Made by a program: the position numbers and the translations under genes
In this document: piece after piece, positions 8,592 to 41,761 of the stretch
Position numbering within the stretch: the stretch's first letter is position 1
How the letters are laid out: each line of letters opens with the position of its first letter
The notes under the pieces: model-generated
Seen by the model: the letters and a program-made list of their open reading frames with translations, nothing else
Told to the model about the DNA's origin: nothing
Databases searched by the model: none
DNA from: Betaproteobacteria bacterium RBG_16_66_20
GTDB taxonomy: Bacteria > Pseudomonadota > Gammaproteobacteria > Burkholderiales > SG8-39
Assembly: GCA_001770285.1 (NCBI GenBank)
Contig: MEQQ01000140.1
Span: 5,589-51,641, forward strand
DNA: 46,053 bases
Direction of reading: 5' to 3'

Positions 8592-10581
8592 GCTCGGCGA
8601 GCTGGTCGCGCGCCTGCGCCGCCTTTTCGAATTCGAGGTTCCTGGCGCAGTCCAGCATCTGCTTCTCCAGCGCGCGGATCTCGCGCGCGAGCTGCTTCTC
8701 GCTCATCGCCTCGTAGCGCGCGCCGGCCTGCGCCGCCTTCAGCTCCTGCCGCGCCCCGTCGGCGTCGTAGACACCGTCGATCAGGTCCTTGATGCGCTTC
8801 TGCACGCCGATCGGCGTGATGTTGTGCTTCGCGTTGTAGGCGATCTGCTTGTTGCGCCGCCGGTCGGTCTCGGCGATGGCGCGCTTCATGGAATCCGTCA
8901 TCCGGTCGGCGTACAGGATCGCGGCGCCGTTGATATGGCGCGCCGCGCGGCCGACGGTCTGGATCAATGAACGCTCCGAGCGCAGGAAGCCCTCCTTGTC
9001 GGCATCCAGGATCGCCACCAGCGACACCTCGGGCAGGTCCAGGCCCTCCCTGAGCAGGTTGATGCCGACCAGCACGTCGAATTCGCCGAGCCGCAGGTCG
9101 CGGATGATCTCCACCCTTTCCACGGTCTCGATCTCGGAATGCAGGTACCGGACCTTGACGCCGTGCTCGCCGAGGTAATCGGTCAGCTGTTCGGCCATGC
9201 GCTTGGTCAGGGTGGTGACCAGGACGCGCTCCTTCTTCGCGACCCGCAGGCTGATTTCCGACAGCAGGTCGTCCACCTGCGTCGCCGCCGGCCGCAGCTG
9301 CACCGGCGGATCGATCAGCCCGGTCGGGCGCACCACCTGCTCCACGATCTGCGCGGATTTGCCCGCCTCGTAGTCGGCCGGCGTCGCCGAGACGAAGATC
9401 GTCTGCCGCACCACCGCTTCGAACTCGTCGAAGCGCAGCGGCCGGTTGTCGAGCGCCGAGGGCAGTCGAAAGCCGTAATCGACCAGGTTCTCCTTGCGCG
9501 AGCGGTCGCCCTTGTACATGCCGCCGAGCTGTCCGATGGTGACGTGGCTCTCGTCGATGATCATCAGCGCGTCGGGCGCCAGGTAGTCGATCAGCGTCGG
9601 CGGCGGCTCGCCCGGCTTGCGTCCGGAGAGGTGGCGCGAATAGTTCTCGATGCCCTTGCAGAAGCCCAGTTCGACCAGCATTTCGAGGTCGAAGCGCGTG
9701 CGCTGCTCGATGCGCTGCGCCTCGACCAGCTTGAGCGCTTTCTGGAAGAAATCGATGCGCTCGCGCAGCTCGAGCTTGATCGCCTCGATCGCGCGCAGCG
9801 TGGTGGCGCGCGGCGTCACGTAATGGCTCGAGGGATAGACCGTGAAGCGCGCCATCGGGTGCTGCACCCGGCCCGTGAGCGGATCAAATACTTCCAGTTT
9901 TTCCACCGCATCATCGGACAATGAGATTCGAATTGCATGCTCGGCATGCTCGGCCGGGAAGACGTCGATCACGTCGCCGCGCACCCGGAAAGTGCCGCGG
10001 CGGAAGTCGAGCTCGTTGCGGTCGTACTGCATCGCCACCAGCCGCGCGATCACCTCGCGCTGCTGCAATTTCTCGCCTTGGCGCAGGTGCAGGATCATGC
10101 CGTGGTACTCGGAAGGATCGCCGATGCCGTAGATCGCCGACACCGTGGCGACGATCACCACGTCGCGCCGCTCCAGCAGCGACTTGGTGGCCGACAGGCG
10201 CATCTGCTCGATGTGCTCGTTGATCGACGAGTCCTTCTCGATGTAGAGATCGCGCGACGGGACGTAGGCCTCGGGCTGGTAGTAGTCGTAGTAGGAAACG
10301 AAGTACTCGACCGCGTTGTCGGGGAAAAACTCGCGGAATTCCGAATAAAGCTGCGCCGCGAGCGTCTTGTTGGGCGCCAGCACCAGCGCCGGGCGGCCGA
10401 GCCGCGCGATCGCGTTGGCCATGGTGAAGGTCTTGCCCGAGCCGGTCACGCCGAGCAGCGTCTGGAACGCGAGGCCGTCCCCGATCCCCTCGACGATCTT
10501 GGCGATCGCCTCCGGCTGATCGCCCGCCGGCGGATACGGCTGGTGCAGTTTGAACGGGCTATTGGGGAAAGCGAGATCCAC
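8551..10581 (-). CDS. uvrB: Excinuclease ABC subunit B
   Basis: Walker [53 protein letters not shown] and a C-terminal UVR coiled coil. The probable start is GTG at 10581; the ORF-track extension to 11640 is antisense to the aminotransferase. Confidence 0.97.
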
Positions 10582-10589
10582 GGGTAAAC

Positions 10590-10604
10590 TATTGCAGCGC
10601 AATA
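10590..10604. promoter_or_regulatory. Palindrome TATTGC-AGC-GCAATA in the uvrB/aminotransferase divergent spacer (candidate operator)
   Basis: Perfect 6-bp inverted repeat within a 45-bp intergenic region. Confidence 0.3.
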
Positions 10605-10626
10605 ACCAACATTCCAGTCTAGCAGA

Positions 10627-11844
10627 ATGAACGCACCGCACGCACCCTCCCCGCTCGCCGCGGTCGATATGGCGCCCAAGGACCCGATCCTTGGCGTCAC
10701 CGAGGCGTACGTCGCCGACCAGAACCCGAAAAAGGTCAATCTCGGCGTCGGCGTCTATACCGACGACAACGGCAAGGTGCCGCTGCTCGAGTGCGTGCGC
10801 CGCGCCGAGGACAGCCGCGTCAGGAGCGGCGCGCCCAAGTCTTACCTGCCCATCGACGGCATTGCCGCTTATGACAAAGCTGTCCGGGAACTCGTTTTCG
10901 GTTCTTCTTGTAGTGCTTTGAATGAAAACCGGGTCGTAACCATTCAGGCCCTGGGCGGCACCGGCGGCCTGAAGATCGGCGCCGACTTCCTCAAGCAGAT
11001 CAGTCCCGCCGCGACGGTCTGGATCAGCGAGCCGAGTTGGGAGAACCATCGCGCCCTGTTCGAAGGCGCGGGTTTCGCGGTCAGGGAATACCCGTACTAC
11101 GACCCGAAGACGCACGGCCTGAACTTCGAAGGCATGCTGGGCGGGCTGAAAAAGCTGCCGGCGGGTGCGATCGCGGTGCTGCATTCCTGCTGCCACAACC
11201 CTACCGGCGTCGACCTGACCGAGGACCAGTGGAAGCAGGTGCTGGAAGTCGTCCGGGCGCGCGCGATCGTGCCGTTCCTCGACCTCGCCTACCAGGGCTT
11301 TGCCGAGGGCGCCGACGCCGACGCCTACGCCCCGCGCCTGTTCGCGCAAGCGACGCAGCCCGTGTTCCTGTCGAGTTCCTTCTCCAAGTCCTTCTCGCTC
11401 TACGGCGAGCGCGTCGGCGCCTTCAGCCTGGTCGCCGGCAGCAGCGACGAAGCCGCGCGCGTCCTCTCGCACCTCAAGCGGATCGTGCGCGCCAACTACT
11501 CCAACCCGCCGACGCACGGCAGCGACATCGTCGCGCGGGTGCTCACGAACCCGGAACTGCGCGCGCTCTGGGATCGGGAACTGGGCGCGATGCGGGACCG
11601 CATCAAGACGATGCGCAAGGCCCTCGTCGACGGCATCCATGCGCGCGTCGCCGGCGCCGACTTTTCCTTCGTCATGCAGCAGCGCGGCATGTTCTCCTAT
11701 TCCGGCCTCACCCGGGAGCAGGTCCTGCGTCTGCGCAGCGAATATTCGATCTACACCATCGAGACCGGGCGCATCTGCGTCGCCGCGCTGACGACGAAGA
11801 ACATCGACTACGTCGCCGAGGCCATCGCCCGAGTGCTCAAGTAG
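10627..11844 (+). CDS. tyrB: Aromatic/aspartate aminotransferase (class I PLP)
   Basis: [47 protein letters not shown] (PLP lysine), [12 protein letters not shown]. Conserved uvrB-aminotransferase-tRNA-Asn layout. Confidence 0.92.
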
Positions 11845-11864
11845 GTCTGCGGCCTTTTTTTCTA

Positions 11865-11877
11865 TATAATTCCGGCC
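11865..11877 (+). promoter_or_regulatory. -10 box TATAAT with GC-rich discriminator, tRNA promoter
   Basis: Perfect TATAAT at 11865-11870 followed by TCCGGCC, 18 nt before the tRNA; typical stable-RNA promoter layout. The -35 element is unclear. Confidence 0.65.
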
Positions 11878-11888: not shown

Positions 11889-11964
11889 TCCTCGATAGCT
11901 CAGTTGGTAGAGCGTCGGACTGTTAATCCGCAGGTCCCTGGTTCGAGTCCAGGTCGAGGAGCCA
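11889..11964 (+). tRNA. tRNA-Asn(GTT)
   Basis: Acceptor stem TCCTCGA/TCGAGGA, D arm GCTC-AGTTGGTA-GAGC, anticodon loop CTGTTAA, T arm CCTGG-TTCGAGT-CCAGG, encoded CCA; 76 nt. Confidence 0.97.
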
Positions 11965-12007
11965 GACCCCAGTGCGACCCTCAAACCTCACTGCCCGGGT
12001 TCAATCG

Positions 12008-17880: not shown

Positions 17881-19242
17881 TCAGGTGGCCGAGCGCTGCT
17901 GCTGCAGGCCGAAGGTCTGCTCCATTTCACGGCGCAATTTCACCGCGGGCAGGCTGGCCTCGAAGGCGACGTCGCCCCAGCTGAGCGCCTGACCGGCGGC
18001 GACCGGCCGCAACAGCTTCCAGCCGTGCGCGAGGCCGAGCGGCAGGCAGCCCTGCGCCAGCGAAGCCTGCGCGGGCATCAGGCGCCCGACCACGGTGTAC
18101 CCACCCTCACCATCGAGAATTTCGCTTTCATTCAAATCTTTTTTTGCAACTGCAACAGCGTCCGCACGCCATCCTGTCGCGCAGCCGGTCGGCTCGCCGC
18201 GCAAGCCCACGGAGGCGACCGAAATGCCGACCTCCAGCCCGATCAGGTGCCAGCGCTTGTACATGCAGGCGTAACGCCCCGACGGGTCGGTCTGCACGCC
18301 GTACTCGGAAAAGCAGCGCCGGATGTACTCCGATTCGCCCTCGAACACCACCCAGACGCCGAAGCGGATGTCGTAGGGAATGACCCTGCCGTCGCGCTCC
18401 AAAGACGACACCACCTCGACCTGTCCCTTGTGGTGCAGTTGCCCGCCTTCCTCCCGGGGCCGCATCACGCTTGGCAGCTGATCAATGGAACAAGCTGGAA
18501 AAGAAAGGCCAGCGGGCGCCGGCGTCAAACCGGTGGCGTTGCACACCGCGCTCGCTTCGATCGCCGGCTTGGAGCCATCGAGAAAGGAATTGAACATCTT
18601 CGGATTGAGGCCGCCGACGCTGGCCTGCTCCGGCGTGAGCCCGTAGTAGCCCCACACCGTCTCGGGCGTGGATTGCGCATAGTGCGGCAGCCACTTGTGG
18701 CCGCGACCTGCCGCAACGACCGGAAAACCCGCCGCGCGCGCCCAGTCCACCAGATCGCAGATGAGCGCCGGCTGGTCGCCGTAAGCGAGGCTGTAGACGA
18801 CCCCGGCCTGCCTGGCGCGCTGCGCCAGCATCGGCCCGCAGAACGCATCGGCTTCGACCGTCACGTTGACGACATGCTTGCCGTTCCGGAACGCGTCCAG
18901 GATGTGCTCGACCGCAGCCACCGGGTTGCCGGTCGCCTCGATCACGATGTCGATCGAAGGATGCGAGACCAGCGCCTGCCAGTCTTCAGAAATGTGGGTA
19001 ATACGGTTCTTGAGCGCGTGTTCAATTGAAGTTCCAGAATAATTTCCGGGACTCCAGCCAACGCGGCCTAGATTCGTCTTCGCATTCTCCGGAGAAAGGT
19101 CTGCGATCGAGACCAGATGCACGCCCGGGGTGCGCGGCACCTGCGCGAGATACATCGCCGCGAATTTTCCCGCGCCGATCAAGCCGATGCGGATCGGTTT
19201 ACCCTGGTTTTCTCTTTCCTGCAGTTTTGCGTAGAGGTTCAT
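17881..19242 (-). CDS. NAD(P)-dependent oxidoreductase with C-terminal SAF domain (COG4091-like, predicted homoserine dehydrogenase-like)
   Basis: IGLIGAGKFA Rossmann motif, IEATG, AYGDQP, MFNSFLDGSK, SAF region AKKDL...LDGEGGYTV...LPLGLA. ATG at 19242 overlaps the upstream stop (ATGA). Confidence 0.85.
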   Translation of the reverse strand: MNLYAKLQERENQGKPIRIGLIGAGKFAAMYLAQVPRTPGVHLVSIADLSPENAKTNLGRVGWSPGNYSGTSIEHALKNRITHISEDWQALVSHPSIDIVIEATGNPVAAVEHILDAFRNGKHVVNVTVEADAFCGPMLAQRARQAGVVYSLAYGDQPALICDLVDWARAAGFPVVAAGRGHKWLPHYAQSTPETVWGYYGLTPEQASVGGLNPKMFNSFLDGSKPAIEASAVCNATGLTPAPAGLSFPACSIDQLPSVMRPREEGGQLHHKGQVEVVSSLERDGRVIPYDIRFGVWVVFEGESEYIRRCFSEYGVQTDPSGRYACMYKRWHLIGLEVGISVASVGLRGEPTGCATGWRADAVAVAKKDLNESEILDGEGGYTVVGRLMPAQASLAQGCLPLGLAHGWKLLRPVAAGQALSWGDVAFEASLPAVKLRREMEQTFGLQQQRSAT

Positions 19243-20084
19243 GCCGCCTCCAGCGCTCCCTGCAGTTCTTCGGCCGGCGTGCCGTCCTTCCAGGGCAGCG
19301 GCACGTCGTAGGGCTTGCGCAGGCAGTCGTCCGGCAGGCACCGGATCGGCGCGAAATCGCGGTGCGCGATGTAGCCGGGCCGCTTGAAGCGCCGGATGTG
19401 GTTCGACACCGCGCACAGCGACAGATACACGCTGACCCGGTTCCAGGGCGACAGGTTCGAGCCCGAGGCATGCACCAGGCAGCCATGGAACAGGATCATC
19501 GAGCCGGCCGGCCCTTTCGGCGCCACGATGCCGCCGTGTTCGACCAGTTTCCCTATGCTTTCGTTATTTATGGTCCAAAGCGGATAACTCGTCGTGCTGG
19601 TGTCGTGCTGCGCCTCCAGCACGCCGAGTGTGTGGCTGCCGGGGATCAACATCAGCGGCCCGTTGAATTCGTTCACTTGGTCGAGGAAGATCGCCACGTT
19701 CATGGCGCGCGCCTCGGGCATCTGGTCGTCGTTGCGCCAGGTGCCGTAGTCCTGGTGCCACTGCCAGAGGTCGCCGTCGAACGCCTGCTTGCCGTTGATC
19801 TTGAACTGGTGCATGTAGACGTCTTCGCCGAACACCTGCTGCACCGGCTCGACCATGCGCGGGTGGCGCGCCAGCCGCGCGAAAGGCGCGCTGTACATGT
19901 GCGCCGCGAAATTGGTGCGCACGACATCGCCGGTCTTCTCGCGCACGTTCTCGGGCCGGCGCTGGGCGTAGAGCGCGGGCACCTCGTCGGTCAGAACCTT
20001 GATTTCCTCCGGCGTGAACAGACCGGGAAAGAACAGGTAACCGTCGCTGTCGAAGGTGTCGAGCTGGGCTTGCGTCAGTTTCAT
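19239..20084 (-). CDS. Fe(II)/2-oxoglutarate dioxygenase, PhyH family (EctD/proline hydroxylase-like)
   Basis: QFKINGK, WQWHQDYGTW (H-x-D), NGPLMLIPGSH, GPAGS..FH...VHAS..N...R; SD GGAGAGG before ATG at 20084. Confidence 0.88.
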   Translation of the reverse strand: MKLTQAQLDTFDSDGYLFFPGLFTPEEIKVLTDEVPALYAQRRPENVREKTGDVVRTNFAAHMYSAPFARLARHPRMVEPVQQVFGEDVYMHQFKINGKQAFDGDLWQWHQDYGTWRNDDQMPEARAMNVAIFLDQVNEFNGPLMLIPGSHTLGVLEAQHDTSTTSYPLWTINNESIGKLVEHGGIVAPKGPAGSMILFHGCLVHASGSNLSPWNRVSVYLSLCAVSNHIRRFKRPGYIAHRDFAPIRCLPDDCLRKPYDVPLPWKDGTPAEELQGALEAA

Positions 20085-21744: not shown

Positions 21745-25844
<4,100 letters not shown>

Positions 25845-27837: not shown

Positions 27838-29466
27838 ATGACGCGCGAATCGATGCGATACGACATCGTGATCGTGGGCGGCGGCCCGGCGGGCCTCGCC
27901 GCGGCGATCCGGCTCAAGCAACTGTCGCCCGATTGCTCGGTCTGCGCAATCGAGAAAGGCTCCGAAATCGGCGCCCACATCCTTTCCGGCGCGGTGATGG
28001 ATCCCCGCGCGATGGACGAACTGTTCCCCGACTGGAAGGCCAAGGGCGCGCCGCTGAATGTTGCCGTTGCCGAGGACAGATTTTTATTCTTGAGAGAGAA
28101 AACGGCATTCAGGACACCGAACTTCCTGCTTCCCGCCTGCTTCCAGAATCACGGCAACTACGTGATCAGCCTCGGCAGCGTCGCGCGCTGGCTCGGGCAG
28201 CAGGCCGAAGCGCTGGGGGTCGAGATCTTCCCCGGTTTCGCGGCCGCGGAGGTCCTTTACGATGAAAAGGGCGCGGTAAAGGGCGTCGCCACGGGCGACA
28301 TGGGCGTCAACCGCAGGGGCGAGCGCACCGACGCGTTCCAGCCCGGCATCGAACTGCACGCCAAATACACCTTCTTCGCCGAAGGCTGCCGCGGCAACCT
28401 GGGCAAGCAGCTCGAGACAAAATTCGACCTGCGCAGGGGATCCGATCCGCAGGTCTACGGCATCGGCCTCAAGGAACTATGGGACCTGAAACCGGATAAG
28501 CATCAGCCGGGACTGGTGGTGCACACCGCCGGTTGGCCGCTCGAGAGCGACACCTATGGCGGTTCGTTCCTTTACCACCTGGAGAACAACCAGGCCGCGG
28601 TCGGTTTCGTGGTCGGGCTCGCCTATACCAACCCATACCTCAGCCCCTACGAGGAATTCCAGCGCTACAAGACGCATCCCGCGATCCGCAGTTTCCTCGA
28701 GGGCGGAAAACGCGTCGCCTACGGCGCCAGGGCGATCGCCGCGGGCGGCCTGCAATCGCTGCCCGAGCTGGCCTTCCCGGGCGGCTGCCTGATCGGCGAC
28801 GATGCGGGCTTCCTGAACGCTTCCCGCATCAAGGGCAGCCACTGCGCGATCAAGTCCGGCATGCTCGCGGCCGAAGCCGCGCACGCTGCGCTTGCCGCCG
28901 GCCGCGCAGGCGATACGCTGGCGTCCTACCCGGAAGCCTTCAGGCAAAGCTGGCTGTTCGACGAACTCTACCGGGCGCGCAACTTCAAGCCCTGGATGGC
29001 CAAGGGCCTGTACACCGGCTCGCTCATGTTCGGCGTCGACCAGATCGTGTTCGGTGGCAAGGCGCCCTGGACGCTGCACCACGGCCATGCCGACCACGAG
29101 ACCCTGAAGAAAAAGACCGAAGCCGAGCCGATCGCCTATCCCAAGCCCGACGGCGTGCTGAGTTTCGACCGGCTGACCAGCGTCTCGTTCTCGAGCACCA
29201 ACCACGGCGAGGACCAGCCGGCGCACCTGACGCTCAAGGACGCGTCGGTGCCGGTCAATGTCAATCTCGAGCTCTACGATGCGCCCGAGCAGCGCTACTG
29301 CCCGGCGGGCGTCTACGAGATCGTGCGCGAGGCCGCGGGGGCGCGGCTGCAGATCAACGCGCAGAACTGCGTCCACTGCAAGACCTGCGACATCAAGGAT
29401 CCGACGCAGAACATCGTCTGGGTCACGCCGGAAGGCGGCGGCGGACCCAACTACCCGAACATGTAG
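27838..29466 (+). CDS. Electron transfer flavoprotein-ubiquinone oxidoreductase (ETF-QO)
   Basis: IVGGGPAG FAD motif, EKGSEIGAHILSGA, AEGCRG, RIKGSH, Fe-S motifs CPAGVYE and CVHCKTC, WVTPEGGGGPNY. Confidence 0.96.
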   Translation: MTRESMRYDIVIVGGGPAGLAAAIRLKQLSPDCSVCAIEKGSEIGAHILSGAVMDPRAMDELFPDWKAKGAPLNVAVAEDRFLFLREKTAFRTPNFLLPACFQNHGNYVISLGSVARWLGQQAEALGVEIFPGFAAAEVLYDEKGAVKGVATGDMGVNRRGERTDAFQPGIELHAKYTFFAEGCRGNLGKQLETKFDLRRGSDPQVYGIGLKELWDLKPDKHQPGLVVHTAGWPLESDTYGGSFLYHLENNQAAVGFVVGLAYTNPYLSPYEEFQRYKTHPAIRSFLEGGKRVAYGARAIAAGGLQSLPELAFPGGCLIGDDAGFLNASRIKGSHCAIKSGMLAAEAAHAALAAGRAGDTLASYPEAFRQSWLFDELYRARNFKPWMAKGLYTGSLMFGVDQIVFGGKAPWTLHHGHADHETLKKKTEAEPIAYPKPDGVLSFDRLTSVSFSSTNHGEDQPAHLTLKDASVPVNVNLELYDAPEQRYCPAGVYEIVREAAGARLQINAQNCVHCKTCDIKDPTQNIVWVTPEGGGGPNYPNM

Positions 29467-30329: not shown

Positions 30330-32120
30330 CTAGGCGGCGAGGAACTGCTCGTCCGAGAGCGCCATCACCGCGGCCGAACCGCGGGTCACCGTGGCGGCGA
30401 GCCCCGGCGCCTGTGTCAGCACGTGGTCGGCGAAGAAACGCGCCGTCGCGATCTTGGCGGCGTAAAAACCCTGATCGCCTTCCTTTGTTGCCAGTTTCTT
30501 TTCCGCAATCAACGCCGCGCGCGCCATCTGCCAGCCGCCGGCGGTGATCCCCATCAGCTTGAGGAACGGCACCGCGCCCGCGAAGACCGCGTTGGGATCC
30601 TTGCTCGCGGTGGCGAGGATGAAATCGACGCTGTCGGAGACTGCCTGCACCGCGGCGGAAACACAGATACGTATAGCTTGAATATCCGGATTTCCCGAAC
30701 TGGAAAGTTCCGCATCGAAATTCCTCAAGCCAACAATCCATTCCCTGACGGTCGCACCCGCCTCGCGCGCGATCTTGCGCCCGACGAGGTCGCCCGCCTG
30801 GATGCCGGTGGTTCCCTCGTATATCGTGGTGATGCGCGCGTCGCGCAGGTGCTGCGCGGCGCCGGTCTCCTCGATGAACCCCATGCCGCCGTGCACCTGC
30901 ACGCCGAGCGAGGCGATTTCGATGCCGGTCTCGGTGCTCCAGCCCTTGACCACAGGAATCATCAGGTCGACGAAGGCCTGGTGTTTCCTTTGCTCTTCCG
31001 GATTCTTGGTCCTTAAAGAAAAATCCATCGAGGCCGCCACGACATAGGCGAGCGCGCGCGCCGCCTCGGTCTGCGACTTCATCAGCATCAGCATGCGGCG
31101 CACGTCCGGGTGGCGGATGATCGGGACCGTGTTGCCGCCCTGCACCAGGTCCTTGCCCTGCAGCCGCTCCTTGGCGTAGGCCAGCGCGCGCTGGAACGCG
31201 CGCTCGGCGATCGACACGCCCTCCAGCCCGACGCTGAAGCGCGCCGCGTTCATCATCACGAACATGTACGCGAGGCCCTTGTTCTCCTCGCCCACGAGGT
31301 GGCCGACTGCGTCCTCGAACACCATCACCGCCGTAGGGCTGGCGTGGATGCCGAGCTTGTGCTCGATCGACGCGCATTTCGCACGGTTGCGTTCGCCGGG
31401 CGTGCCGTCGGGTTTGAGCAGGAATTTCGGCACCACGAAAAGCGAAATGCCCTTCACGCCCTCGGGCGCGTCCGGCGTGCGCGCAAGCACCAGGTGCACG
31501 ATGTTGTCGGTGAGGTCGTGCTCGCCGTAGGTGATGAAAATCTTCTGCCCGGAGATCAGGTAATGATCCCCCTTGGGCACCGCCCGCGTGCGCACCAGCG
31601 CGAGGTCCGACCCCGCCTGCGGTTCGGTCAGGTTCATGGTGCCGGTCCAGTGGCCGGCGACCATCTTGTCCAGGTAGGCCTTCTTCAGCGCGTCCGAACC
31701 GCACAGGATCAGCGCGTGAATCGCGCCCTGCGTGAGCAGCGGGCAGAGCGAAAAGGACATGTTGCTCGAGGTGAGCATTTCCTCGACTGCGGTGGCAACC
31801 AGCTTGGGCAGGCCCTGCCCGCCGAACGCCTCCTCGAACGGCAGCGCGGGCCAGCCTGCCTCCACGTACTGCCGGTAGGCCTGCTTGAAGCCCTTGGGCG
31901 TTGTCACCGCGCCATCGCGCCATTGGGAGCCTTCCTGGTCTCCGGAGTAATTCAGGGGGTCCAGGATCTGCGTGGCGAACTTGGATGCTTCTTCCAGGAT
32001 CGCGTCCACGGTGTCCGGGCTCGCCTCGCCGAATCCCGGCAGCTTCGCGACTTCGGCAAGGCCGGCGAGCTCGTTCAGCACGAAGCGCATGTCCTTCAAA
32101 GGCGCGACATAAGAGCTCAT
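30330..32120 (-). CDS. Acyl-CoA dehydrogenase (long FadE/DmdC-like type)
   Basis: [73 protein letters not shown]. Confidence 0.92.
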
Positions 32121-33052
32121 TTCTTAAGTTCCTCGATCAATTCCGGGACCACCTTGAACAGATCGCCCACGATGCCGTAATCGGCCACCTGGAAGATCGG
32201 CGCTTCCTCGTCCTTGTTGATGGCGACGATCACCCGGCTGTCCTTCATCCCGGCCAGGTGCTGGATGGCGCCGGAGATGCCGACCGCGACGTAGAGCTCG
32301 GGCGCCACGATCTTTCCGGTCTGCCCTACCTGCCAGTCGTTCGGCACGAAGCCCGCATCCACTGCCGCGCGCGAAGCGCCCATGGCCGCGTTCAGCCTGT
32401 CCGCCAGCGGCTCGAGGATCTTGAAGTTCTCGCCCGAACCCATGCCGCGTCCGCCCGAGACGACGATCTTCGCGGCGGTGAGCTCCGGGCGCTCGGACTT
32501 GGAGATTTCGCGGCTGACGAAGCTCGAGAGGCCACTATCGGCAGGAGGATCCATTTTTTCGATAGCAGCATTTCCCCCGGCAGGCGCGACCGCATCAAAC
32601 CCGGTCGTGCGCACGGTAATGACCTTGATCGCGTCTTTCGACTTCACCGTGGCGAGCGCGTTGCCGGCGTAGATCGGCCGCACGAAAGTATCCGGCGACT
32701 CGACCGCGATGATCTCGGAGATCTGCTGCATGTCGAGCAGCGCGGCGATGCGCGGCGTCACGTCCTTGCCGTTCGAGGTCGCGGGCGCAAGGATGTGCGA
32801 ATAGCCCTTTGCGATCGAAACCACCAGGGCAGCGACGTTCTCCGCGAGAAACTCGGCGAGCTGCGGCGCTTCCGCGTTCAACACCTTCGCCACCCCCGGG
32901 ATCTGGGCGGCGGCCTTGGCCGCGCCGTCGGCATTGTGCCCGGCGACCAGGACGTGGACCTCGCCGCCGATCTTGTGCGCCGCGGCCACCGTATTGAGCG
33001 TCGCGCCCTTGAGCGTGCCGTGGTCGTGCTCCGCAATCACCAGGATGGCCAT
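32117..33052 (-). CDS. etfA: Electron transfer flavoprotein alpha subunit
   Basis: [48 protein letters not shown]. Confidence 0.97.
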
Positions 33053-33054: not shown

Positions 33055-33804
33055 TCAGATCACCTTGGCTTCGTTGCGCAGCTTGTCGACCAGCGCTTTC
33101 GCGTCGGGCACCCTGACCCCGGCCTTGCGCTTGGGCGGCTCGACCACTTTCAGGGTCGCGAGGCGCGGCGCGATGTCGACGCCGAGCGCATCGGGCTTGA
33201 GGTTCTCGAGCGGCTTTTTCTTCGCCTTCATGATGTTGGGCAGCGTGACGTAGCGCGGCTCGTTCAGGCGCAAGTCGCTGGTCACGATCGCGGGCAGCCT
33301 GACCGATACCGTCTCCAGGCCGCCGTCGACTTCGCGGGTGACTTGCGCCTTGTCATTTTCTATTTTTATTTTCGAAGCAAACGTGGCCTGGGGCCAGCCG
33401 AGCAGCGCGGCGAGCATCTGCCCGGTCTGGTTCGAATCGTCGTCGATCGCCTGCTTTCCCAATATGACCAGTCGGGGCGCTTCCTTTTGACAGACTGCTT
33501 TCAGGATCTTTGCAACCGCAAGAGGCTGCAACTCCTCGTTGCTCTCCACCAGGATTGCCCGATCCGCCCCGATCGCGAGCGCCGTGCGCAGGGTCTCCTG
33601 GCAGGCCGCGGCGCCGCAGGAAACGGCCACCACCTCGGTCGCGACGCCGGCTTCCTTCAGCCGCACCGCCTCCTCCAGCGCGATCTCGTCGAACGGGTTC
33701 ATCGACATTTTCACGTTGGCGGTCTCGACGCCGGTGCCGTCGGCCTTGACGCGCACCTTGACGTTGTAATCGACCACGCGCTTGACGCTGACCAGTACTT
33801 TCAT
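33055..33804 (-). CDS. etfB: Electron transfer flavoprotein beta subunit
   Basis: [37 protein letters not shown]. Confidence 0.97.
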
Positions 33805-33903: not shown

Positions 33904-33910
33904 CCGGCCA

Positions 33911-36678: not shown

Positions 36679-38393
36679 CGCTGCCAAGCGCGCGCGCGCC
36701 GGAGGGCGTGCCCGAATCCCGCGGCCTGAACCTGTTCGAGGCGGACCCCTCCTACCGGGGGCTGCTGGAGCTGCACCTCGAGCCGAAGCTCTGCGCCCAC
36801 CTGCTGCCTCATTTCGCGCAGTTAGGCGCGATGGCGGGCGGTGATCTTGATGAATTGGCGTTGGAAGCAGACAAGAATCCTCCGGTATTGAACGGCCAAA
36901 GGATAGAAAAAAGCCAGGCCTACAAAAAACTGGAGGAAGTCGCCTTCGCCAAATACGGCCTTGCCGCCATGTCGCACCGGGGCGGCGTGCTCGGCTGGCC
37001 GGAGCCGCTGCCGCCCGCGGTCAAATACGCGCTCACCTATGTTTACGTGCAGGCCGAATTCGGCGTCTGCTGCCCTCTGTCGATGACCGATGCGCTGACG
37101 CGCACCATCCGCAAATACGCCGATCCGGCGCTGGTGGCGCGCTATCTGCCCGGGCTGACATCACAGGACCTCGACGCGTTGACGCAGGGTGCGATGTTCA
37201 TCACCGAGCAGCAGGCCGGTTCGGACGTTGGACTGGTACAAACGCTTGCAACAAGAGAAAAAGATCATTGGCTGCTGTCCGGCGACAAATGGTTCTGCTC
37301 CAACGTCGATGCCGGTCTGGCCCTGGTCCTCGCGCGCCCCGAGGGTGCGCCCGGCGGAACCGCCGGCCTTTCCCTGTTTCTGCTGCCGCGCACGCTGCCG
37401 GACGGATCGCCCAACCGTTACCGCATCGTGCGCCTCAAGGACAAACTCGGCACGCGCGACATGCCGAGCGGCGAGATCAAGCTCGAGGGCGCGCTCGCCT
37501 GGCTGGTGGGCGACCCGCAGCAGGGCTTCAAACAGATGACCGACATGATCAACATGTCGCGCCTGTCCAACGGCATGCGTGCTGCCGGCATGATGCGCCG
37601 CGCGCTCACCGAGGCCCTGTTCGTCGCACGGCGGCGCATGGCGTTCGGCAAGCCGCTGATCGAGCTGCCGCTGATGCGCCGGCAGCTGCTCAAGCTGATG
37701 CTGCCAGCGGAGGCCGCGCGTTCCGTTCTATTCTTTATTTCAAAGGATTTGGAAAAAGCAGACGCGGGAGATGAGCTCGCGCGGCGCCGCGTCCGGCTTC
37801 TCACGCCGCTCATCAAGTTCCGCGCCTGCCGCGACGCGCGCCGCGTCACCGCAGACGCCATGGAGGTGCGCGGCGGGGCCGGTTACATCGAGGAATGGTC
37901 GGATCCCCGGCTGGTGCGCGACGCGCACCTGGGCTCGATCTGGGAAGGCACCTCCAACATCGTCGCGCTCGACGTGCTGCGCGCGATCCGGCGCGAGAAA
38001 TGCCTCGAAGCGCTGCTGCCGGAGCTGGACGAGCGCATCGCGCGCGCGCCGCGCCTGCTCGCCGGGCGCCTGGCCGCATCGCTCGACAAGGCCGCGGAGT
38101 TTGCGCACGAGACCGCGAGCACGCAAAGCGAGGCCCATGCGCGGCAGGCTGCGACCGGTCTTTACTACGCTTGCGCCGCGGCCCTGCTTGCCGACGAAGG
38201 TACGCGCCTCGGAGAACGCGGCGATGCGCGCCGCCAATTGCTCGCATTCCTCGCCTACGTGCACCGCCTCGCACCGCGCGATCCTCTGCGGCGCGTCACG
38301 ACCGGCTTCGAAGCCGAGTTCGCGCAAGCCTTGCTGCCCGAAACGCCCATTGCGCCGGATGCGGCCGAGCGCATTCTGACGCGCCTTGCCTGA
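36675..38393 (+). CDS. AidB-like acyl-CoA dehydrogenase
   Basis: QAEFGVCCPLSMT, AMFITEQQAGSDV, GDKWFCSN, RLKDKLGTR, AMEVRGGAGYIEE, IWEGTSNIVALD. Confidence 0.88.
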   Translation: MTLPSARAPEGVPESRGLNLFEADPSYRGLLELHLEPKLCAHLLPHFAQLGAMAGGDLDELALEADKNPPVLNGQRIEKSQAYKKLEEVAFAKYGLAAMSHRGGVLGWPEPLPPAVKYALTYVYVQAEFGVCCPLSMTDALTRTIRKYADPALVARYLPGLTSQDLDALTQGAMFITEQQAGSDVGLVQTLATREKDHWLLSGDKWFCSNVDAGLALVLARPEGAPGGTAGLSLFLLPRTLPDGSPNRYRIVRLKDKLGTRDMPSGEIKLEGALAWLVGDPQQGFKQMTDMINMSRLSNGMRAAGMMRRALTEALFVARRRMAFGKPLIELPLMRRQLLKLMLPAEAARSVLFFISKDLEKADAGDELARRRVRLLTPLIKFRACRDARRVTADAMEVRGGAGYIEEWSDPRLVRDAHLGSIWEGTSNIVALDVLRAIRREKCLEALLPELDERIARAPRLLAGRLAASLDKAAEFAHETASTQSEAHARQAATGLYYACAAALLADEGTRLGERGDARRQLLAFLAYVHRLAPRDPLRRVTTGFEAEFAQALLPETPIAPDAAERILTRLA

Positions 38394-38403
38394 AGGATCC
38401 GCC

Positions 38404-39627
38404 ATGGCCGGCCCTCTTTCGCACCTCCGCGTCCTCGACCTGTCGCGCGTGCTTGCCGGGCCGTGGGCGGCGCAGAACCTCGCCGATCTGGGCGCCGAGG
38501 TGATCAAGATCGAGCGCCCCGGCGCGGGCGACGATACGCGCGGCTGGGGCCCGCCCTGGATGAAGGACGCCCAGGGCAAGGACACCGGCGAATCCGCCTA
38601 TTTCCTCTCGGTCAACCGCAACAAGAAATCGGTGACGCTCGACATCGCCAAGCCCGAGGGGCAGCAGATCGCGCGCGAACTGGCGGACAGGTGCCAGGTA
38701 CTGATTGAAAATTACAAGGTCGGTACGTTGAAAAAATACGGCCTGGGTTATGAAGAATTAACGGCATCCAACCCGTCCCTCATCTACTGCTCGGTCACCG
38801 GCTTCGGGCAGGACGGCCCCTATGCGCCGCGCCCGGGCTATGACTTCGTCTTCCAGGGCATGGGCGGGCTGATGTCGATCACCGGCGAACGCGACGGGCA
38901 GCCGGGCGCCGGTCCGCAGAAAGTCGGCATCGCGATCACCGACGTGCTCACGGGGATGTACGCGAGCGTGGCGATCCTTGCCGCGATCACCCACCGCGAA
39001 CGCACCGGCCAGGGGCAGTACATCGATGCGGCCCTGCTGGACACCATGGTCGCCTTCAACGCCAACCAGATCGTGTCCTACTTCTGCTCGGGGAAGATTC
39101 CGGTCCGCTGGGGCAACGCGCATCCGCAGGTCGTTCCCTACGAGGTATTCCCGACCGCCGACGGCCACATCATCCTCGCCATCGGCAACGACGGCCAGTT
39201 CGAGCGCTTCTGCGAGGTCGCCGGCGCCGCCGCGCTGGCGCAGGAACCGCGCTTCAAGACCATGTCGCAGCGGATCATCCACCGCGGCGAGCTGATCCCG
39301 CTGATCGCCGAAATAATGCGCACGCGCAGCAAGCGCGAATGGATCGGGCAGCTCGAGGCGGCCACCGTTCCCTGCGGCCCGATCAACAACATGAAGGAAG
39401 TGTTCGAGGACCCCCAGGTGCGGCACCGCAAGCTGCGCGTCGACATGCCGCACCCGCTGGGCGGCGTCGCGCCGGTCGTGGCGAGCCCGCTGCGGCTTTC
39501 GGAGACGCCGGTTGAATACCGCATTGCGCCGCCGACGCTCGGTCAACACAACGAGGAAATCCTCCAGGGCCTGCTCGGCAGAAGCGCCGCCGACCTGAAA
39601 CGCCTCAAGGACGCGGGAATCGTCTAG
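38404..39627 (+). CDS. CaiB/BaiF (family III) CoA transferase
   Basis: RVLDLSRVLAGP, GDDTRGWGPP, NRNKKS, ENYKVG, TGFGQDGPY, GYDF, PPTLGQH; SD AAGGA before ATG at 38404. Confidence 0.93.
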   Translation: MAGPLSHLRVLDLSRVLAGPWAAQNLADLGAEVIKIERPGAGDDTRGWGPPWMKDAQGKDTGESAYFLSVNRNKKSVTLDIAKPEGQQIARELADRCQVLIENYKVGTLKKYGLGYEELTASNPSLIYCSVTGFGQDGPYAPRPGYDFVFQGMGGLMSITGERDGQPGAGPQKVGIAITDVLTGMYASVAILAAITHRERTGQGQYIDAALLDTMVAFNANQIVSYFCSGKIPVRWGNAHPQVVPYEVFPTADGHIILAIGNDGQFERFCEVAGAAALAQEPRFKTMSQRIIHRGELIPLIAEIMRTRSKREWIGQLEAATVPCGPINNMKEVFEDPQVRHRKLRVDMPHPLGGVAPVVASPLRLSETPVEYRIAPPTLGQHNEEILQGLLGRSAADLKRLKDAGIV

Positions 39628-39649
39628 GATTTGAGCTACGGAGGATCCA

Positions 39650-40612
39650 ATGAAGAAAATGCTGCTGGTTTCCGTTCTTTTGACTCTTGCCTCGGCGGTG
39701 CAGGCGCAGAGCTACCCCAACAAGCCGATCCGCTGGGTGATTCCGTACCCGCCGGGCGGGATCACCGACAACGTGACGCGGATGGTGACGCTGAAGATGC
39801 AGGAGTCGCTTGGCCAGCCGATCGTGATCGAGAACAAGCCGGGCGCCAACTCCATCATCGGCGCCGACCTCGTGGCCAAGGCGGCGCCCGACGGCTACAG
39901 CATCGTCACCGTGATCGCCGCGCACGCCGCAAATGCGACGCTCTACCAGGGCAAGCTGCCGTTCGACCCGGTGAAGAGTTTTGCGCCGGTGTCCCTGGCG
40001 GTGGTCGCGCCGCTGATCCTGACCGCGAACAACAACTTCCCGCCGAAGTCGGCGAAAGAGCTGGTCGAATACGCGAAGAAGAACCCGGGCAAGATTTCCT
40101 TCGGCTCCTCCGGCATCGGCGCGGCGGCGCACCTCACGACCGAGCTTTTCAAGCAGACCACCGGCGTGGACATGGTGCACATTCCGTACAAGGGCACCGC
40201 GCCGGCCCTGCAAGGGCTGATGGGCGGCGACATCCAGATCCTGGTGGACGTGCCGAGCACCTTGATGCCCCAGGTGCGCGGCGGCAAGATCAAGGCGCTC
40301 GCGATGTTCTCCGCGCAACGGGTGCCGGGCGCGCAGGAAGTCCCGACCATGGCCGAGGCCGGCGGCCCGCCGATCGAATCCTCCACCTGGCTGATGTTCC
40401 TCGCGCCCGCCGGCACGCCGCGCGAAATCGTCAACCGCCTGTCGCAGGAGGCGGACAAGGTCGTCAAGTCCAGCGAGATGAGGGCGCGTTTCGACCAGCT
40501 GGGCATCTTCCCCGGCGGCGGCACGCCCGAGCAGGCGGCGAAATTCCTCGCCGACGAGATCACCAAGTGGGCGCGCGTCATCTCCACTGCGGGCGTAAAG
40601 GCGACCGATTAG
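39650..40612 (+). CDS. Bug/TctC tripartite tricarboxylate transporter receptor
   Basis: Signal peptide AQS-YPNKPI, PYPPGG.TD, ENKPGA, APDGY, HIPYKG, VPTMAEAG; SD GGAGG. Confidence 0.92.
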   Translation: MKKMLLVSVLLTLASAVQAQSYPNKPIRWVIPYPPGGITDNVTRMVTLKMQESLGQPIVIENKPGANSIIGADLVAKAAPDGYSIVTVIAAHAANATLYQGKLPFDPVKSFAPVSLAVVAPLILTANNNFPPKSAKELVEYAKKNPGKISFGSSGIGAAAHLTTELFKQTTGVDMVHIPYKGTAPALQGLMGGDIQILVDVPSTLMPQVRGGKIKALAMFSAQRVPGAQEVPTMAEAGGPPIESSTWLMFLAPAGTPREIVNRLSQEADKVVKSSEMRARFDQLGIFPGGGTPEQAAKFLADEITKWARVISTAGVKATD

Positions 40613-41761
40613 ATGGAGGCCGAAGAGTCCCACGCAGAACTGCGCGACGCCGTCCGCGCGCTCTGCAATACCTTCGATTCCGCCTACTGGCAGAAGGTCG
40701 ACGCGGCGCGCGCCTACCCCGAAGCCTTCGTCGACGCGCTCACCAAGGCGGGCTGGATGTCGGCGCTGATCCCCGAGGAATACGGCGGCTCCGGCCTGTC
40801 GCTCACCGAAGCCTCGGTAATCATGGAAGAGGTCACCCGCACGGGCGGCAATGCCGGCTGCTGCCACGGCCAGATGTACAACATGAACACGCTGCTGCGG
40901 CACGGCTCGGCCGAGCAGAAGACGAAGTACCTGCCGAGGATCGCCACCGGCGAGCTGCGGCTGCAGTCGATGGGGGTGACCGAGCCGACCGCCGGCACCG
41001 ACACCACCAGCATCAAGACGGTGGCCGTAAGGAAGGGCGACCGCTACGTGGCCAACGGCCAGAAGGTCTGGACCTCGCGCCTGCAGCACTCCGAGCTCAT
41101 GATCCTGCTCGCGCGCACCACGCCGATTTCCGAAGTCGCGAAGAAATCCGAAGGGATGTCTATTTTTCTTGTAGAAACAAAAAGTAAAGGCTTGGAGATC
41201 AAACCCATCCGGAATATGGTGAACCACGAGACCAACGAGGTGTTCATCGACAACCTCGAGATCCCGGCCGAGAACCTGATCGGCGAGGAAGGCAAGGGCT
41301 TCAGATACATCCTCGACGGCCTGAACGCCGAGCGCATCCTGATCGCCGCCGAGTGCATCGGCGACGGCTACTGGTTCATCGAACGCGCCGCCAAGTATTC
41401 CAAGGAACGCGTGGTGTTCGGCCGGCCGATCGGCCAGAACCAGGGCATCCAGTTCCCGATCGCCGAGTCGTACATGGAAATCGAGGCCGCCAACCTGATG
41501 CGCTACAAGGCGGCGGCGCTGTTCGACGAAGAAAAGCACTGCGGGGCGGAGGCCAACATGGCCAAGCACCTTTGCGCCAAGGCCTCCTGGGAAGCGGCCA
41601 ACGTCTGCATCCAGACCTACGGCGGCTTCGGTTTCGCCGCGGAGTACGACGTGGAGCGCAAATTCCGCGAGTCCCGGCTCTACCTGGTCGCGCCGATCTC
41701 CACCAACCTGATCCTCGCCTACGTCGCCGAGCACGTGCTCGGCCTGCCTAGGTCCTTCTGA
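40613..41761 (+). CDS. Acyl-CoA dehydrogenase (short type)
   Basis: IPEEYGGSG, HGQMYNM, QSMGVTEP, NGQKVW, GLNAERILIA, GGFGFAAEYDVERKFRE. Confidence 0.92.
   Translation: MEAEESHAELRDAVRALCNTFDSAYWQKVDAARAYPEAFVDALTKAGWMSALIPEEYGGSGLSLTEASVIMEEVTRTGGNAGCCHGQMYNMNTLLRHGSAEQKTKYLPRIATGELRLQSMGVTEPTAGTDTTSIKTVAVRKGDRYVANGQKVWTSRLQHSELMILLARTTPISEVAKKSEGMSIFLVETKSKGLEIKPIRNMVNHETNEVFIDNLEIPAENLIGEEGKGFRYILDGLNAERILIAAECIGDGYWFIERAAKYSKERVVFGRPIGQNQGIQFPIAESYMEIEAANLMRYKAAALFDEEKHCGAEANMAKHLCAKASWEAANVCIQTYGGFGFAAEYDVERKFRESRLYLVAPISTNLILAYVAEHVLGLPRSF

Follow-up and report, generated by a model that had tools for sequence, protein, structure and literature searches.

Short in-frame stretches of AT-rich, rare-codon DNA interrupt the GC-rich genes of a soil bacterium and its close relatives, and these patches are real; they look like a local by-product of how base composition evolves, and neither like a hidden code nor like a coded signal. 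The window, meaning the whole analysed stretch of 46,053 nucleotides, has a GC content of 0.653, and the genome that carries it (G000; labels such as G001 denote the relatives' genomes compared) one of 0.659. A 40-bp scan found 32 segments with GC <= 40%, all in 9883-41218 and none in window positions 1-9880. By ORF and Pfam reading 24 of these are intragenic, and the remaining eight lie at gene junctions or spacers (10585, 11831, 11999, 16809, 20077, 23276, 32103 and 39642). An earlier note on this DNA had described 31 intervals as in-frame AT-rich micro-islands in GC-rich genes, and the description holds: all are AT-rich (GC 0.24-0.56), their reading frames are intact, and 38-92% of their codons end in A or T, against ~14% in the genes of the contig (GC3 0.857). 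Three intervals fall below 50%, namely 23648-23770 (19/40), 25100-25160 (9/20) and 34140-34182 (5/13, the lowest share). With a cluster defined as >= 8 of 12 codons A/T-ending and a strong patch as >= 10 of 12, the genes of the contig (C140) contain 25 clusters (>= 8 of 12), compared with 1.4 +- 1.2 in within-gene synonymous shuffles. Genome-wide the codon-shuffle check confirmed the excess over chance, with 745 clusters vs 63.4 +- 5.6 (shuffle maximum 74; 20 shuffles, 1979 ORFs), counts that are approximate because the ORF caller was crude, taking the longest ORFs, covering 70.6% of the genome and admitting some antisense ORFs. The patches have a median length of 10 codons (95% are <= 27 codons) and a GC3 of 0.19 as called; at the DNA level, the median AT-rich segment is 55 bp long.

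Since the assembly of G000 is of the metagenome type and fragmented (155 contigs, 19,733 N, 87.7% complete), the patches could in principle be artefacts of assembly, binning or polishing. However, Logan contigs from four separate soil or sediment runs, which are different samples, perhaps of a single campaign and perhaps with the source sample among them, join patches to their GC-rich flanks with 0-3 differences. Over 30110-30579 there are two differences each in runs X1 and X2, and the X8 contig, covering 30247-30579, also has two. Two patches of the AidB-like gene (36843..36938 and 37228..37276) are spanned with their flanks by contigs of X1, X2 and X8 with 1-3 differences; per-run examples are spans of 36606-37304 (one difference) and 36592-37513 (three). 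In addition, distinct species-level genomes share patches with normal divergence. To the extent that contigs can tell, an artefact of assembly is thus excluded, and we consider this reading hardly credible.

From uvrB to pyrG, the patches lie on the minus strand except where the plus strand is given. The one in uvrB (9883..9937, codons 219-236; GC 0.40, 12/18 A/T-ending; UvrB domains) occupies a site that is AT-rich also in G013 and G008, and not in G001. G000 shares with G013 and G008 the patch of its class I/II aminotransferase gene (10861..10945, plus strand, codons 79-106; 17/28; Pfam Aminotran_1_2). The DRL/SAF oxidoreductase gene has three: 18102..18166 (11/13 A/T-ending in 18117-18156), where species form a graded synonymous series G013 > G014 > G003 > G000 with the protein nearly unchanged; 18481..18507 (8/9); and the broad, weak 18988..19100 (20/37, GC 0.49), with a core at 19005-19047 of GC 0.42. 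The PhyH dioxygenase gene carries a patch at 19539..19593 (GC 0.44; 9/18, hand-read in the minus frame), and because this gene spans 19239-20099 on the minus strand, the interval 19200-19230 falls where the DRL/SAF gene probably starts. Of the two eno patches, 22479..22560 (codons 248-271, 14/24) is common to G000 and G003 and has a strongly altered peptide, and 22701..22759 (codons 184-195, 7/12) is AT-rich in G000, G003, G014, G005 and G008 and GC-rich in G001, G002 and G011. In kdsA, the patch at 23639..23770 (codons 127-166, 19/40) is common to G000, G003 and G014, which have one codon more there than the other genomes, and the strongest lies at 23869..23948 (codons 70-87, 15/18, GC 0.31). 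The pyrG gene has a patch over a conserved motif (24392..24462, codons 451-473, 16/23), mostly synonymous and graded between species, and a weak one at 25100..25162 (codons 218-237, 9/20), where the minimum GC is 38% in G000 vs 52-58% in five relatives. Two further sites are of another kind. The minus-strand junction 23276..23340 comprises the end of kdsA, a ribosome-binding region and the start of eno, and the earlier interval 23300-23335 within it covers the last 11 codons of kdsA (7/11 A/T-ending), just upstream of eno; it is ordinary AT-richness and lies outside the phenomenon. The 5' end of pyrG (25740..25800, minus strand, codons 5-24; 11/20, GC 0.56) is ordinary start-proximal AT enrichment, and is present in nearly all relatives.

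Patches continue, with the same strand convention, from the AMP-binding (acyl-CoA synthetase-like; Pfam AMP-binding) gene onwards. This gene has a patch at 26443..26507 (13/19), common to G000 and G008, and a long one at 27048..27157 (18/33), where minimum GC is 30% vs 52% in G008 and 66% in G001. The patch in the ETF-ubiquinone oxidoreductase gene (28070..28121, plus strand; 6/11; Pfam ETF-QO domains) is stronger in G003 (16% GC). In the long acyl-CoA dehydrogenase gene, the weak patch at 30463..30512 (5/10) coincides with a far stronger one in G013 (22% GC), and those at 30659..30745 (18/28) and 30982..31029 (8/14) are both shared with G003 and G014. A small patch lies in etfA (32550..32575, 6/8; Pfam ETF and ETF_alpha) and another in etfB (33331..33394; 8/10 and GC 0.24 in 33350-33382). 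The remainder are on the plus strand: the AidB-like acyl-CoA dehydrogenase gene, with the two patches already located (15/30 and 10/12, respectively) and a third at 37715..37774 (9/12) in common with G013 (27% GC in both); the family III CoA-transferase gene (38694..38771, 12/22), AT-rich in G000, G003, G013 and G008; and the short acyl-CoA dehydrogenase gene (41133..41220, 12/20), with a minimum GC of 18% both in G000 and in G003 and a graded series leading to G001.

Patchiness varies strongly among genomes. In G000, where every fourth of the 1979 ORFs was taken, we counted 42 strong internal clusters (>= 10 of 12) in 137,738 codons, or 30.5 per 100,000; G013 has eight in 22,977 codons. Such clusters are absent from a Ralstonia megaplasmid (28,801 codons), from G001, the highest-GC congener (24,415), and from two genomes of other families, G021 (13,133) and G024 (12,974); at the G000 rate the Poisson probability of zero is 1.5e-4, 5.8e-4, 0.018 and 0.019, respectively. 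Ralstonia has a milder form, with 12 clusters of >= 8 of 12 vs 3.0 in shuffles. Patches hold 6.2% of codons in G000, 5.3% in G003, 4.8% in G014, 3.3% in G013, 1.7% in G008 and 0.1% in G001, and 50% of the GC3 deficit of G000 relative to its highest-GC congener is held by 6.1% of codons. Among congeners, patch positions overlap 5 to 40 times above the circular-shift prediction, and fourfold sites within shared patches have same:different ratios resembling background. Positions are largely inherited inside the genus, and the conservation in relatives that had been raised as a check stops there: six genomes of other families have no A/T-ending rise at the eno, kdsA and pyrG patch columns (differences -0.074 to +0.021).

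Sharing of positions far above chance within the genus is what one would expect if patches were selected elements, placed where the protein tolerates them. They could be rare-codon clusters that slow ribosomes for co-translational folding, or AT-rich DNA or RNA tracts serving as a site for an AT-preferring nucleoid protein, an mRNA-decay entry or an antisense-transcript terminator. We regard this as possible, though rather unlikely: G001 is nearly patch-free yet has the same genes, and the flat patch columns of the six other-family genomes also argue against it.

Composition and substitution patterns bear on both function and cause. All three codon positions are AT-shifted in patches. GC at codon positions 1 and 2 is 0.47-0.50 in patches vs 0.59-0.64 for the matching columns of G001, a shift of -0.11 to -0.175 compared with -0.02 to -0.03 elsewhere, which translational pausing does not predict. 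At amino-acid-invariant columns the A/T-ending fraction is 0.531 inside patches and 0.102 outside, and the enrichment is a regional and not a per-site effect. Patches preferentially, though not exclusively, occupy variable protein segments: 55% of their columns are variable vs 33.5% outside, and the share of amino acids that differ from G001 is 0.35-0.40 within them, compared with 0.20-0.23 elsewhere. When patches were defined by two species and changes scored in a third, W>S changes were fewer in patches (61/177 = 0.345 vs 365/736 = 0.496 outside, P = 3e-4) and S>W changes more frequent (20/88 = 0.227 vs 1157/12746 = 0.091, P = 1e-4), rates that are rough because parsimony on skewed composition overcounts common-to-rare changes. 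A local shift of the mutation/fixation balance towards AT is seen directly in these substitution counts, in partial support of the earlier note, whose bound-protein footprint would be a candidate cause; the better retention and faster gain of A/T in patches would also suit selected elements. Across the genome, local AT at codon positions 1 and 2 is uncorrelated with A/T-ending codons (r = -0.023), so a simple feedback in which AT begets AT is unsupported. Among 34 genomes of the genus, MutS is found in 31 and MutY in all, and family-1 Ung in none; the pattern is alike in patch-rich and patch-poor species, leaving the clade effect without a repair-gene explanation.

Patches might instead be short recombination or gene-conversion tracts, from homologues of AT-rich organisms or from AT-richer congeneric alleles. 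Sharp boundaries and protein-preserving changes fit this idea, as does a burst of ~20 changes within 39 bases along a single terminal branch; in G014, a run of 13 consecutive A/T-ending codons across a conserved motif of acyl-CoA dehydrogenase arose on one terminal branch with only two amino-acid changes. In their eno patch peptide, G000 and G003 are also far from their kin, and eno residues are shared mosaic-fashion by non-sister species (G018 with G000/G003; G000 with G008). However, a search with the eno patch (22479..22560), the sole patch searched, yielded no donor among the 80 loci kept of at least 599 matched stretches, 543 of which were relatives, in a collection from which own-genus records may be missing; the best match to its 15-residue core among those 80 loci was 8/15. 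Searching the own genome with 23 window patches gave no non-self match and no second copy. Codon usage does not resemble that of the 39%-GC relative G019 either: among W-ending codons in patches, CTT makes up 66% and TTA 19% of Leu, CGA 33% of Arg and ATA 42% of Ile, whereas in G019 TTA makes up 42% of W-ending Leu codons. Over all patch codons, third positions are 41% A and 41% T. At several patches, alignments reveal graded synonymous series between species, and amelioration runs below the background rate, with A/T gained faster inside. The strongest kdsA patch is missing from the nearest kin G003, G007 and G014, and G010 has a kdsA patch with different codons on a different protein background (G000-G010 identity 63% in the patch, 71% outside); the kdsA patch originated twice independently, in G000 and in G010. 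One position struck twice would equally suit selected elements. Finally, the presence of MutS should leave the barrier to recombining diverged DNA in place. Given these signs of in-place origin, we consider recombination or gene-conversion tracts improbable.

The earlier note had favoured a second information layer patterning the chromosome about every kb, a spacing that is right locally but fails genome-wide, where segments number one per 2.26 kb and are clustered, not regular (gap coefficient of variation 1.28). As the note itself had said, the patches share no motif (best 6-mer 30 occurrences vs 11.2 expected). Patch numbers in individual genes show over-dispersion, with no patch in 1567 of 1979 ORFs and at least four in 21, and a 2862-residue glucan-synthase-like gene is patch-free. 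The lack of a motif and this irregularity speak against a patterning layer and against selected elements in general. H-NS or Lsr2 as the binding protein fares no better, since G000 has no Histone_HNS or Lsr2 match; three of 34 genus genomes have a Histone_HNS, and one of them, G002, has no patch in the locus examined. Promoters at patches find no support, sigma-70-like sites showing no excess (3 vs 1.9 +- 1.3). Terminator-like sites number 24 vs 15.6 +- 4.0 in shuffles, 17 of the 24 being antisense to the gene and several at patches, an excess in the direction of selected elements that is weak because the shuffles destroy AT clustering. Also in their favour are the extreme, nearly pure synonymous runs over conserved motifs, and the enrichment of ATA, AGA and TTA, the rarest codons, among W-ending codons in patches relative to scattered W-ending codons outside.

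The explanation we favour, with about even confidence, is that patches are in-situ clusters of rare codons and AT at places where the force that favours GC is weak, in a clade losing GC. They arise in place through ordinary point substitutions, and fixed changes within them are tilted to A/T at all three codon positions. The most likely cause would be a local weakening of selection on codons or GC content, or of GC-biased conversion; locally AT-biased mutation input is the alternative, and in both cases the setting would be a sub-clade of the genus with falling GC. Published work describes bacterial mutation as AT-biased, and selection or biased conversion as what upholds GC (PMC2936535, PMC2936529, PMC4450053). 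Several observations sit uneasily with this explanation. Some patches, such as the G014 13-codon run, go beyond what simple relaxation would produce. The rough substitution rates imply an equilibrium A/T-ending fraction of ~0.34-0.45 in patches, which the strongest (0.8-1.0) exceed. New third-position S>W changes show no more than mild clustering along terminal branches (variance/mean 1.17-1.35 vs 1.26-1.48 for S>S), in a likewise rough parsimony count that was restricted to sites with agreement between two reference species and thereby dropped variable stretches. In Burkholderia cenocepacia, of the same order, the mutation-drift equilibrium GC is reported as 0.539 (10.1101/011841); if the value is similar in this genus, a patch GC3 of 0.19 needs an active AT pull and not mere release.

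We infer that the patches lack a function; their expected consequence would be short, slowly decoded and weakly structured stretches of mRNA. Rare-codon clustering has been found in many genomes (PMC2565806), and clusters with conserved positions are described in published work (PMC2565806, PMC5438181), a precedent that selected elements can also claim. The patches are a strong variant of this known rare-codon clustering.

The 2.95-Mb assembly of Betaproteobacteria bacterium RBG_16_66_20 (G000; 155 contigs, GC 0.659) carries patches in its GC-rich genes, by which we mean short in-frame clusters of rare, A/T-ending codons. An earlier note on this DNA had listed 31 such micro-islands, and the observation is confirmed: the listed intervals have a GC of 0.24–0.56, with 38–92% A/T-ending codons vs. 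~14% across the genes of the contig. A 40-bp scan of the window identified 32 segments of GC ≤40%, all between 9883 and 41218 and none in the first 9.9 kb. When protein sequence and per-gene codon usage are kept fixed in shuffles, clusters of at least 8/12 A/T-ending codons number 25 in the contig genes vs. 1.4 ± 1.2 expected, and 745 in the whole genome vs. 63.4 ± 5.6. At a threshold of at least 10/12, 42 internal clusters were found in 137,738 codons (every fourth ORF; 30.5 per 100,000) vs. 0.1 in shuffles. The genome-wide counts are approximate, as they rest on crude ORF calls, of which the curated window genes and codon alignments are independent.

ORF and Pfam evidence upholds, in substance, the gene names first given to this stretch: UvrB, a class I/II aminotransferase, a branched-chain permease, a DRL/SAF oxidoreductase, a PhyH dioxygenase (19239–20099, minus strand), the enolase locus, KdsA (DAHP_synth_1), the CTP synthase locus, an AMP-binding enzyme, ETF-QO, two acyl-CoA dehydrogenases, EtfA/B, an SDR, an AidB-like protein, and a CoA-transferase III, with the identities of eno and pyrG resting on the original label together with alignments. 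The uvrB gene lies in a 1029-residue ORF (8551–11640, minus strand) that reaches too far in the 5′ direction: its UvrB domains start near residue 374, the upstream part overlaps the opposite-strand aminotransferase gene, and the true start is probably near 10590. Long antisense ORFs with high GC3, like this upstream part, are common in G000. A 2862-residue ORF resembling cyclic beta-1,2-glucan synthase (3–8591, plus strand; GT2, glucoamylase-like, and GH94 domains) has no AT patch, where ~2.6 would be expected at the genome-wide rate (chance of none, 0.07).

Gene starts and junctions are often AT-rich and rich in rare codons, as described in the excerpts of PMC2833160 and PMC3964316. Similarly, 8 of the 32 AT-rich window segments lie at starts, stops, or spacers when read from gene coordinates (for example 23276–23340 and 32103–32148). 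Unlike these, the other 24 segments sit deep within genes, over 50 codons from both ends, as do 28 of the 31 intervals in the earlier list. Only three (23300–23335, 25740–25800, and probably 19200–19230) lie just ahead of a start codon or no more than ~25 codons from one, and their AT-richness is ordinary; start-proximal or junction enrichment is thus rejected as a general explanation. AT-rich spacers (11831–11873 and 11999–12042) also flank the tRNA gene at 11889–11961 (plus strand). In a 9.3-kb contig of ribosomal-protein genes, all five AT segments are at or near gene junctions by gene coordinates. Internal codon clusters are absent from that contig and from rpoC, which were looked at as highly expressed genes, but the genome rate predicts only ~2 and 1.3 there.

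A chimeric assembly could in principle create such abrupt changes in composition. Separately assembled contigs in four of 14 DNA metagenome runs cross patches together with their GC-rich flanks with 0–3 differences (for example 36606–37304 and 30110–30579), although the runs may stem from a single campaign, and the source sample may be among them. Only spanning contigs were used, as the comparison of run contigs at 90% likeness was dominated by related soil organisms. Independent support comes from congeners at the species level (80–87% DNA identity), which share many of the patches, and in which patch divergence is about that of the flanks. As far as contigs can tell, the patches are not an assembly artefact. 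The locus is also widely sampled: the 14 DNA metagenome runs contain 0.48–0.71 of the sampled words of window 22000–26000, 12 of them half or more, and the runs containing this stretch are soil and sediment metagenomes of 2016. RNA runs contain just 0.07–0.08 of the same words.

The change in the patches is not confined to synonymous sites. Over the whole genome, GC1/GC2/GC3 is 0.638/0.452/0.19 in called patches vs. 0.676/0.464/0.872 outside, and the residues K, E, S, R, H, and N are over-represented in the patches. Relative to the same columns of G001, a congener with a GC of 0.70, GC at positions 1 and 2 is down by 0.11–0.175 in patches and by 0.02–0.03 elsewhere, which means that the drive toward A/T operates at the level of DNA and not on codon choice alone. 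Amino-acid difference to G001 is 0.35–0.40 in patches vs. 0.20–0.23 elsewhere, and 55% of protein columns are variable in patches vs. 33.5% outside, so the patches favour protein segments that tolerate change. Even at columns where the amino acid is invariant, 53% of codons end in A/T inside patches vs. 10% outside, and the AT shift is a regional effect. A per-site effect of translational accuracy is rejected, since outside the patches invariant and variable columns are nearly alike in their A/T-ending fraction (0.102 vs. 0.128). Seeding of patches by an AT-rich amino-acid context is rejected as well: the genome-wide correlation is −0.023, and G001 is GC-richer than average at positions 1 and 2 of patch columns (0.59–0.64 vs. 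0.55–0.56). Strand-coordinated hypermutation of the deaminase type does not fit, as C>T, G>A, G>T, and C>A changes occur together on a single strand of the inspected patches, and third positions in patches have A = T = 41%. Loss of a repair gene does not account for the difference between clades, as the pattern for MutS, MutY, and family-1 Ung is alike in every species, whether rich or poor in patches. Across 34 genomes of the genus (G000–G045; 16 of high quality), family-1 uracil-DNA glycosylase (TIGR00628) matches in none, MutY in all 34, and MutS in 31.

Codon alignments of 24 genes of the window, each covering at most six species, show how unevenly the patches are distributed among congeners. 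Patches take up 6.2% of the codons in G000, 5.3% in G003, 4.8% in G014, 3.3% in G013, 1.7% in G008, and 0.1% in G001, and 50% of the GC3 deficit of G000 relative to G001 is concentrated in 6.1% of codons. Patch positions overlap between species 5 to 40 times more than expected from circular shifts. At fourfold sites in shared patches, identical and different A/T letters stand at 26:9, 20:5, 21:2, and 12:4, ratios similar to the roughly 3:1 of G/C letters outside, which indicates that most patches are inherited. Others are young or have arisen more than once. In G014, a run of 13 consecutive A/T-ending codons covers a conserved acyl-CoA dehydrogenase motif with only two amino-acid changes, and the same motif is GC-rich in five relatives. 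The kdsA patch at 23869–23948 is absent from G003, G014, and a further congener, G007, and has an independent counterpart in the congener G010, where both the codons and the surrounding protein sequence differ. At the patch columns of eno, kdsA, and pyrG, A/T-ending codons do not rise in six genomes from other families, in which such codons need not be rare.

In an eno–kdsA–pyrG protein tree (loci L001–L012 and L196–L205), six outgroup genomes join beside the patch-rich clade (G014,(G000,G003)) with a support of 1.0; either this clade is basal in the genus, or its AT-shifted amino acids attract the lower-GC outgroups, and because of this possible compositional attraction the rooting was not used to date the patches. 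Within eno codons 176–200 and 244–274, species that are not sisters (among G000, G008, G018, and G004) share derived residues inside patches, such as G000 with G008, and G018 with G000/G003. Such sharing may reflect either convergent acquisition of a small number of conservative changes or the exchange of short stretches among species.

Another reading is that the patches are short recombination tracts from an AT-rich donor. Several lines of evidence speak against import. Synonymous series are graded across species in the DRL/SAF gene and in pyrG, and patch codon usage is dominated by one-step derivatives (CTT >> TTA, CGA common, and ATA at 42% of the Ile codons ending in A or T), which together point to a stepwise origin in place. 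Patch codon usage also differs from that of G019, a relative with 39% GC. For the eno patch, the only one searched for a donor (185,579 species, one genome each), a 60-residue query around the patch gave ordinary enolases alone among the 80 loci retained from at least 599 candidates, and the best match to its 15-residue core among these was 8/15. A template elsewhere in the genome, as in DGR-like systems or conversion by paralogues, is likewise rejected, since 23 patches gave no non-self matches in G000.

The substitution rates are the most informative in this respect. With patches defined by two species and a third read, third-position A/T to G/C changes occurred at 61 of 177 sites inside (0.345) vs. 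365 of 736 outside (0.496; P = 3e-4), and G/C to A/T changes at 20 of 88 inside (0.227) vs. 1157 of 12,746 outside (0.091; P = 1e-4). Had the patches come from a single event and then ameliorated normally, the rates inside and outside would be equal; their inequality shows that the balance of substitutions is persistently shifted in these places, and foreign imports that ameliorate at the host rate are therefore rejected. Of the explanations first proposed, a local shift of mutation or fixation toward AT is supported, and recombination from an AT-rich donor is not. New G/C to A/T changes on terminal branches are only mildly clustered. From the inside-patch rates, the equilibrium A/T-ending fraction is computed at about 0.34–0.45, which the most extreme patches exceed. 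In Burkholderia cenocepacia, of the same order, the mutational equilibrium lies near GC 0.54 (10.1101/011841, in excerpt). Taken together with the extreme patches, this means that an active pull toward A/T, through selection or a biased process, may also be at work.

To address how special the patches are, internal clusters of at least 10/12 were counted with the same pipeline in control genomes, each sampled at 53–150 kb (five others, G019, G022, G023, G025, and G027, were unusable because of low GC). Eight were found in the 22,977 codons of the congener G013, and none in the Ralstonia GMI1000 megaplasmid (GC 0.661; 28,801 codons), in G001 (24,415 codons), or in two genomes of other families, G021 (13,133 codons) and G024 (12,974 codons). 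At the rate of G000, the Poisson chance of zero clusters ranges from 1.5e-4 to 0.019 across these four. The earlier note had taken the same patchiness in any GC-matched betaproteobacterium as grounds against its proposal. Ralstonia does have a mild form, with 12 clusters at the looser threshold of 8/12 vs. 3.0 in shuffles, but lacks the strong one; mild clustering thus appears general and the strong form clade-specific. Separately, contig C5 of G020 (L096–L097), from another family of the order, has six clusters of at least 8/12 vs. 1.2 shuffled and one of at least 10/12 in 8,791 codons, so the strong form may extend beyond one genus.

The patches were originally proposed to be a second information layer superimposed on coding DNA, for example sites of a nucleoid protein patterning the chromosome about every kb. 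Neither idea is supported: the patches show no shared motif and no one-per-gene pattern, and the spacing of 1300 AT segments genome-wide is irregular (one per 2.26 kb; gaps average 1812 bases, with a median of 1017 and a coefficient of variation of 1.28), with short gaps exceeding the exponential expectation. The H-NS (PF00816) and Lsr2 (PF11774) families have no match in G000, which is 87.7% complete, and H-NS matches in 3 of 34 genomes of the genus. Over 22000–41300, sigma-70 −35/−10 consensus sites are not in excess (3 vs. 1.9 ± 1.3 in shuffles), and Rfam gives nothing in the window besides the tRNA. Terminator-like sites, hairpins followed by T-runs, number 24 over the same interval vs. 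15.6 ± 4.0 in shuffles; 17 of the 24 are antisense to the local gene by hand count, and for several of them, such as those at 30960, 33333, 26442, 28119, 38777, and 41206, the T-run falls within a patch. As the shuffles remove AT clustering, this excess is a lead only.

It seems to us improbable that selection acts on the AT tracts as elements of the DNA or RNA, set into change-tolerant segments of core proteins within a single sub-clade of this uncultured betaproteobacterial soil genus. Such elements might nucleate the binding of an as yet unrecognised chromosome protein that prefers AT or, in a transcriptome of very high GC, might serve as points of entry or termination through which mRNA decay and antisense transcription are controlled. 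Selection of this kind is compatible with A/T being better retained and faster gained in patches, with the double origin in kdsA, and with the nearly synonymous 13-codon run of G014. If true, the patches would add a new class to the signals that coding sequences carry. If they are instead by-products, formed in situ where the force favouring GC is locally weak in a clade that is losing GC, the genus would be a clean natural comparison for the old question of how bacterial genomes stay rich in GC, since close species span 0.1% to 6.2% of codons in patches and half of the GC3 loss of one species lies in 6% of its codons. With at least 14 DNA metagenome runs containing about half or more of the sampled words of the 4-kb stretch, allele-frequency tests of selection vs. 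biased conversion inside and outside patches are feasible. For annotation, sharp AT spikes within GC-rich core genes need not be foreign DNA, chimeric assembly, or regulatory sites.

Xenogeneic silencers (H-NS, MvaT, and Lsr2) target acquired DNA. Like their sites in GC-rich genomes, the patches are short AT-rich tracts on both strands with no strict motif; unlike them, they are found in core genes rather than acquired islands, in a genome with no match to the H-NS or Lsr2 families. In the framework of GC-content balance, AT-biased mutation is opposed by selection or GC-biased conversion (PMC2936535, PMC2936529, and PMC4450053, in excerpt). The patches resemble this in several respects: bulk genes stay at a GC3 of ~0.87–0.92 while patches drift to equal A and T at third positions, patch codons are typical of no codon selection, and scattered A/T third positions revert at 0.50 per branch. 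However, the framework, as far as those excerpts go, covers genomes, genes, or recombining regions, and the switch seen here is heritable and spans 30–100 bases within genes. Excerpts of the open-access literature yielded no description of a base-composition switch at this scale inside genes, and we know of none.

The nearest described kind, judging from the excerpts of Clarke and Clark 2008 (PMC2565806) and Chaney et al. 2017 (PMC5438181), is the rare-codon cluster, the position of which is conserved among homologues of diverse species in the latter. As in such clusters, the runs are far more frequent than protein sequence and gene-wide codon usage would lead one to expect, are found within genes that are ordinary, essential, and conserved, and occupy positions common to homologues, here within the genus. 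Unlike them, the patches also shift codon positions 1 and 2 to A/T, their positions in eno, kdsA, and pyrG are kept within the genus and not in the six genomes of other families, and their strength differs steeply between close species. Three features set the patches apart from the rare-codon clusters of these excerpts: nonsynonymous positions also shift to AT, closely related species differ steeply, and the measured substitution regime is bound to place.
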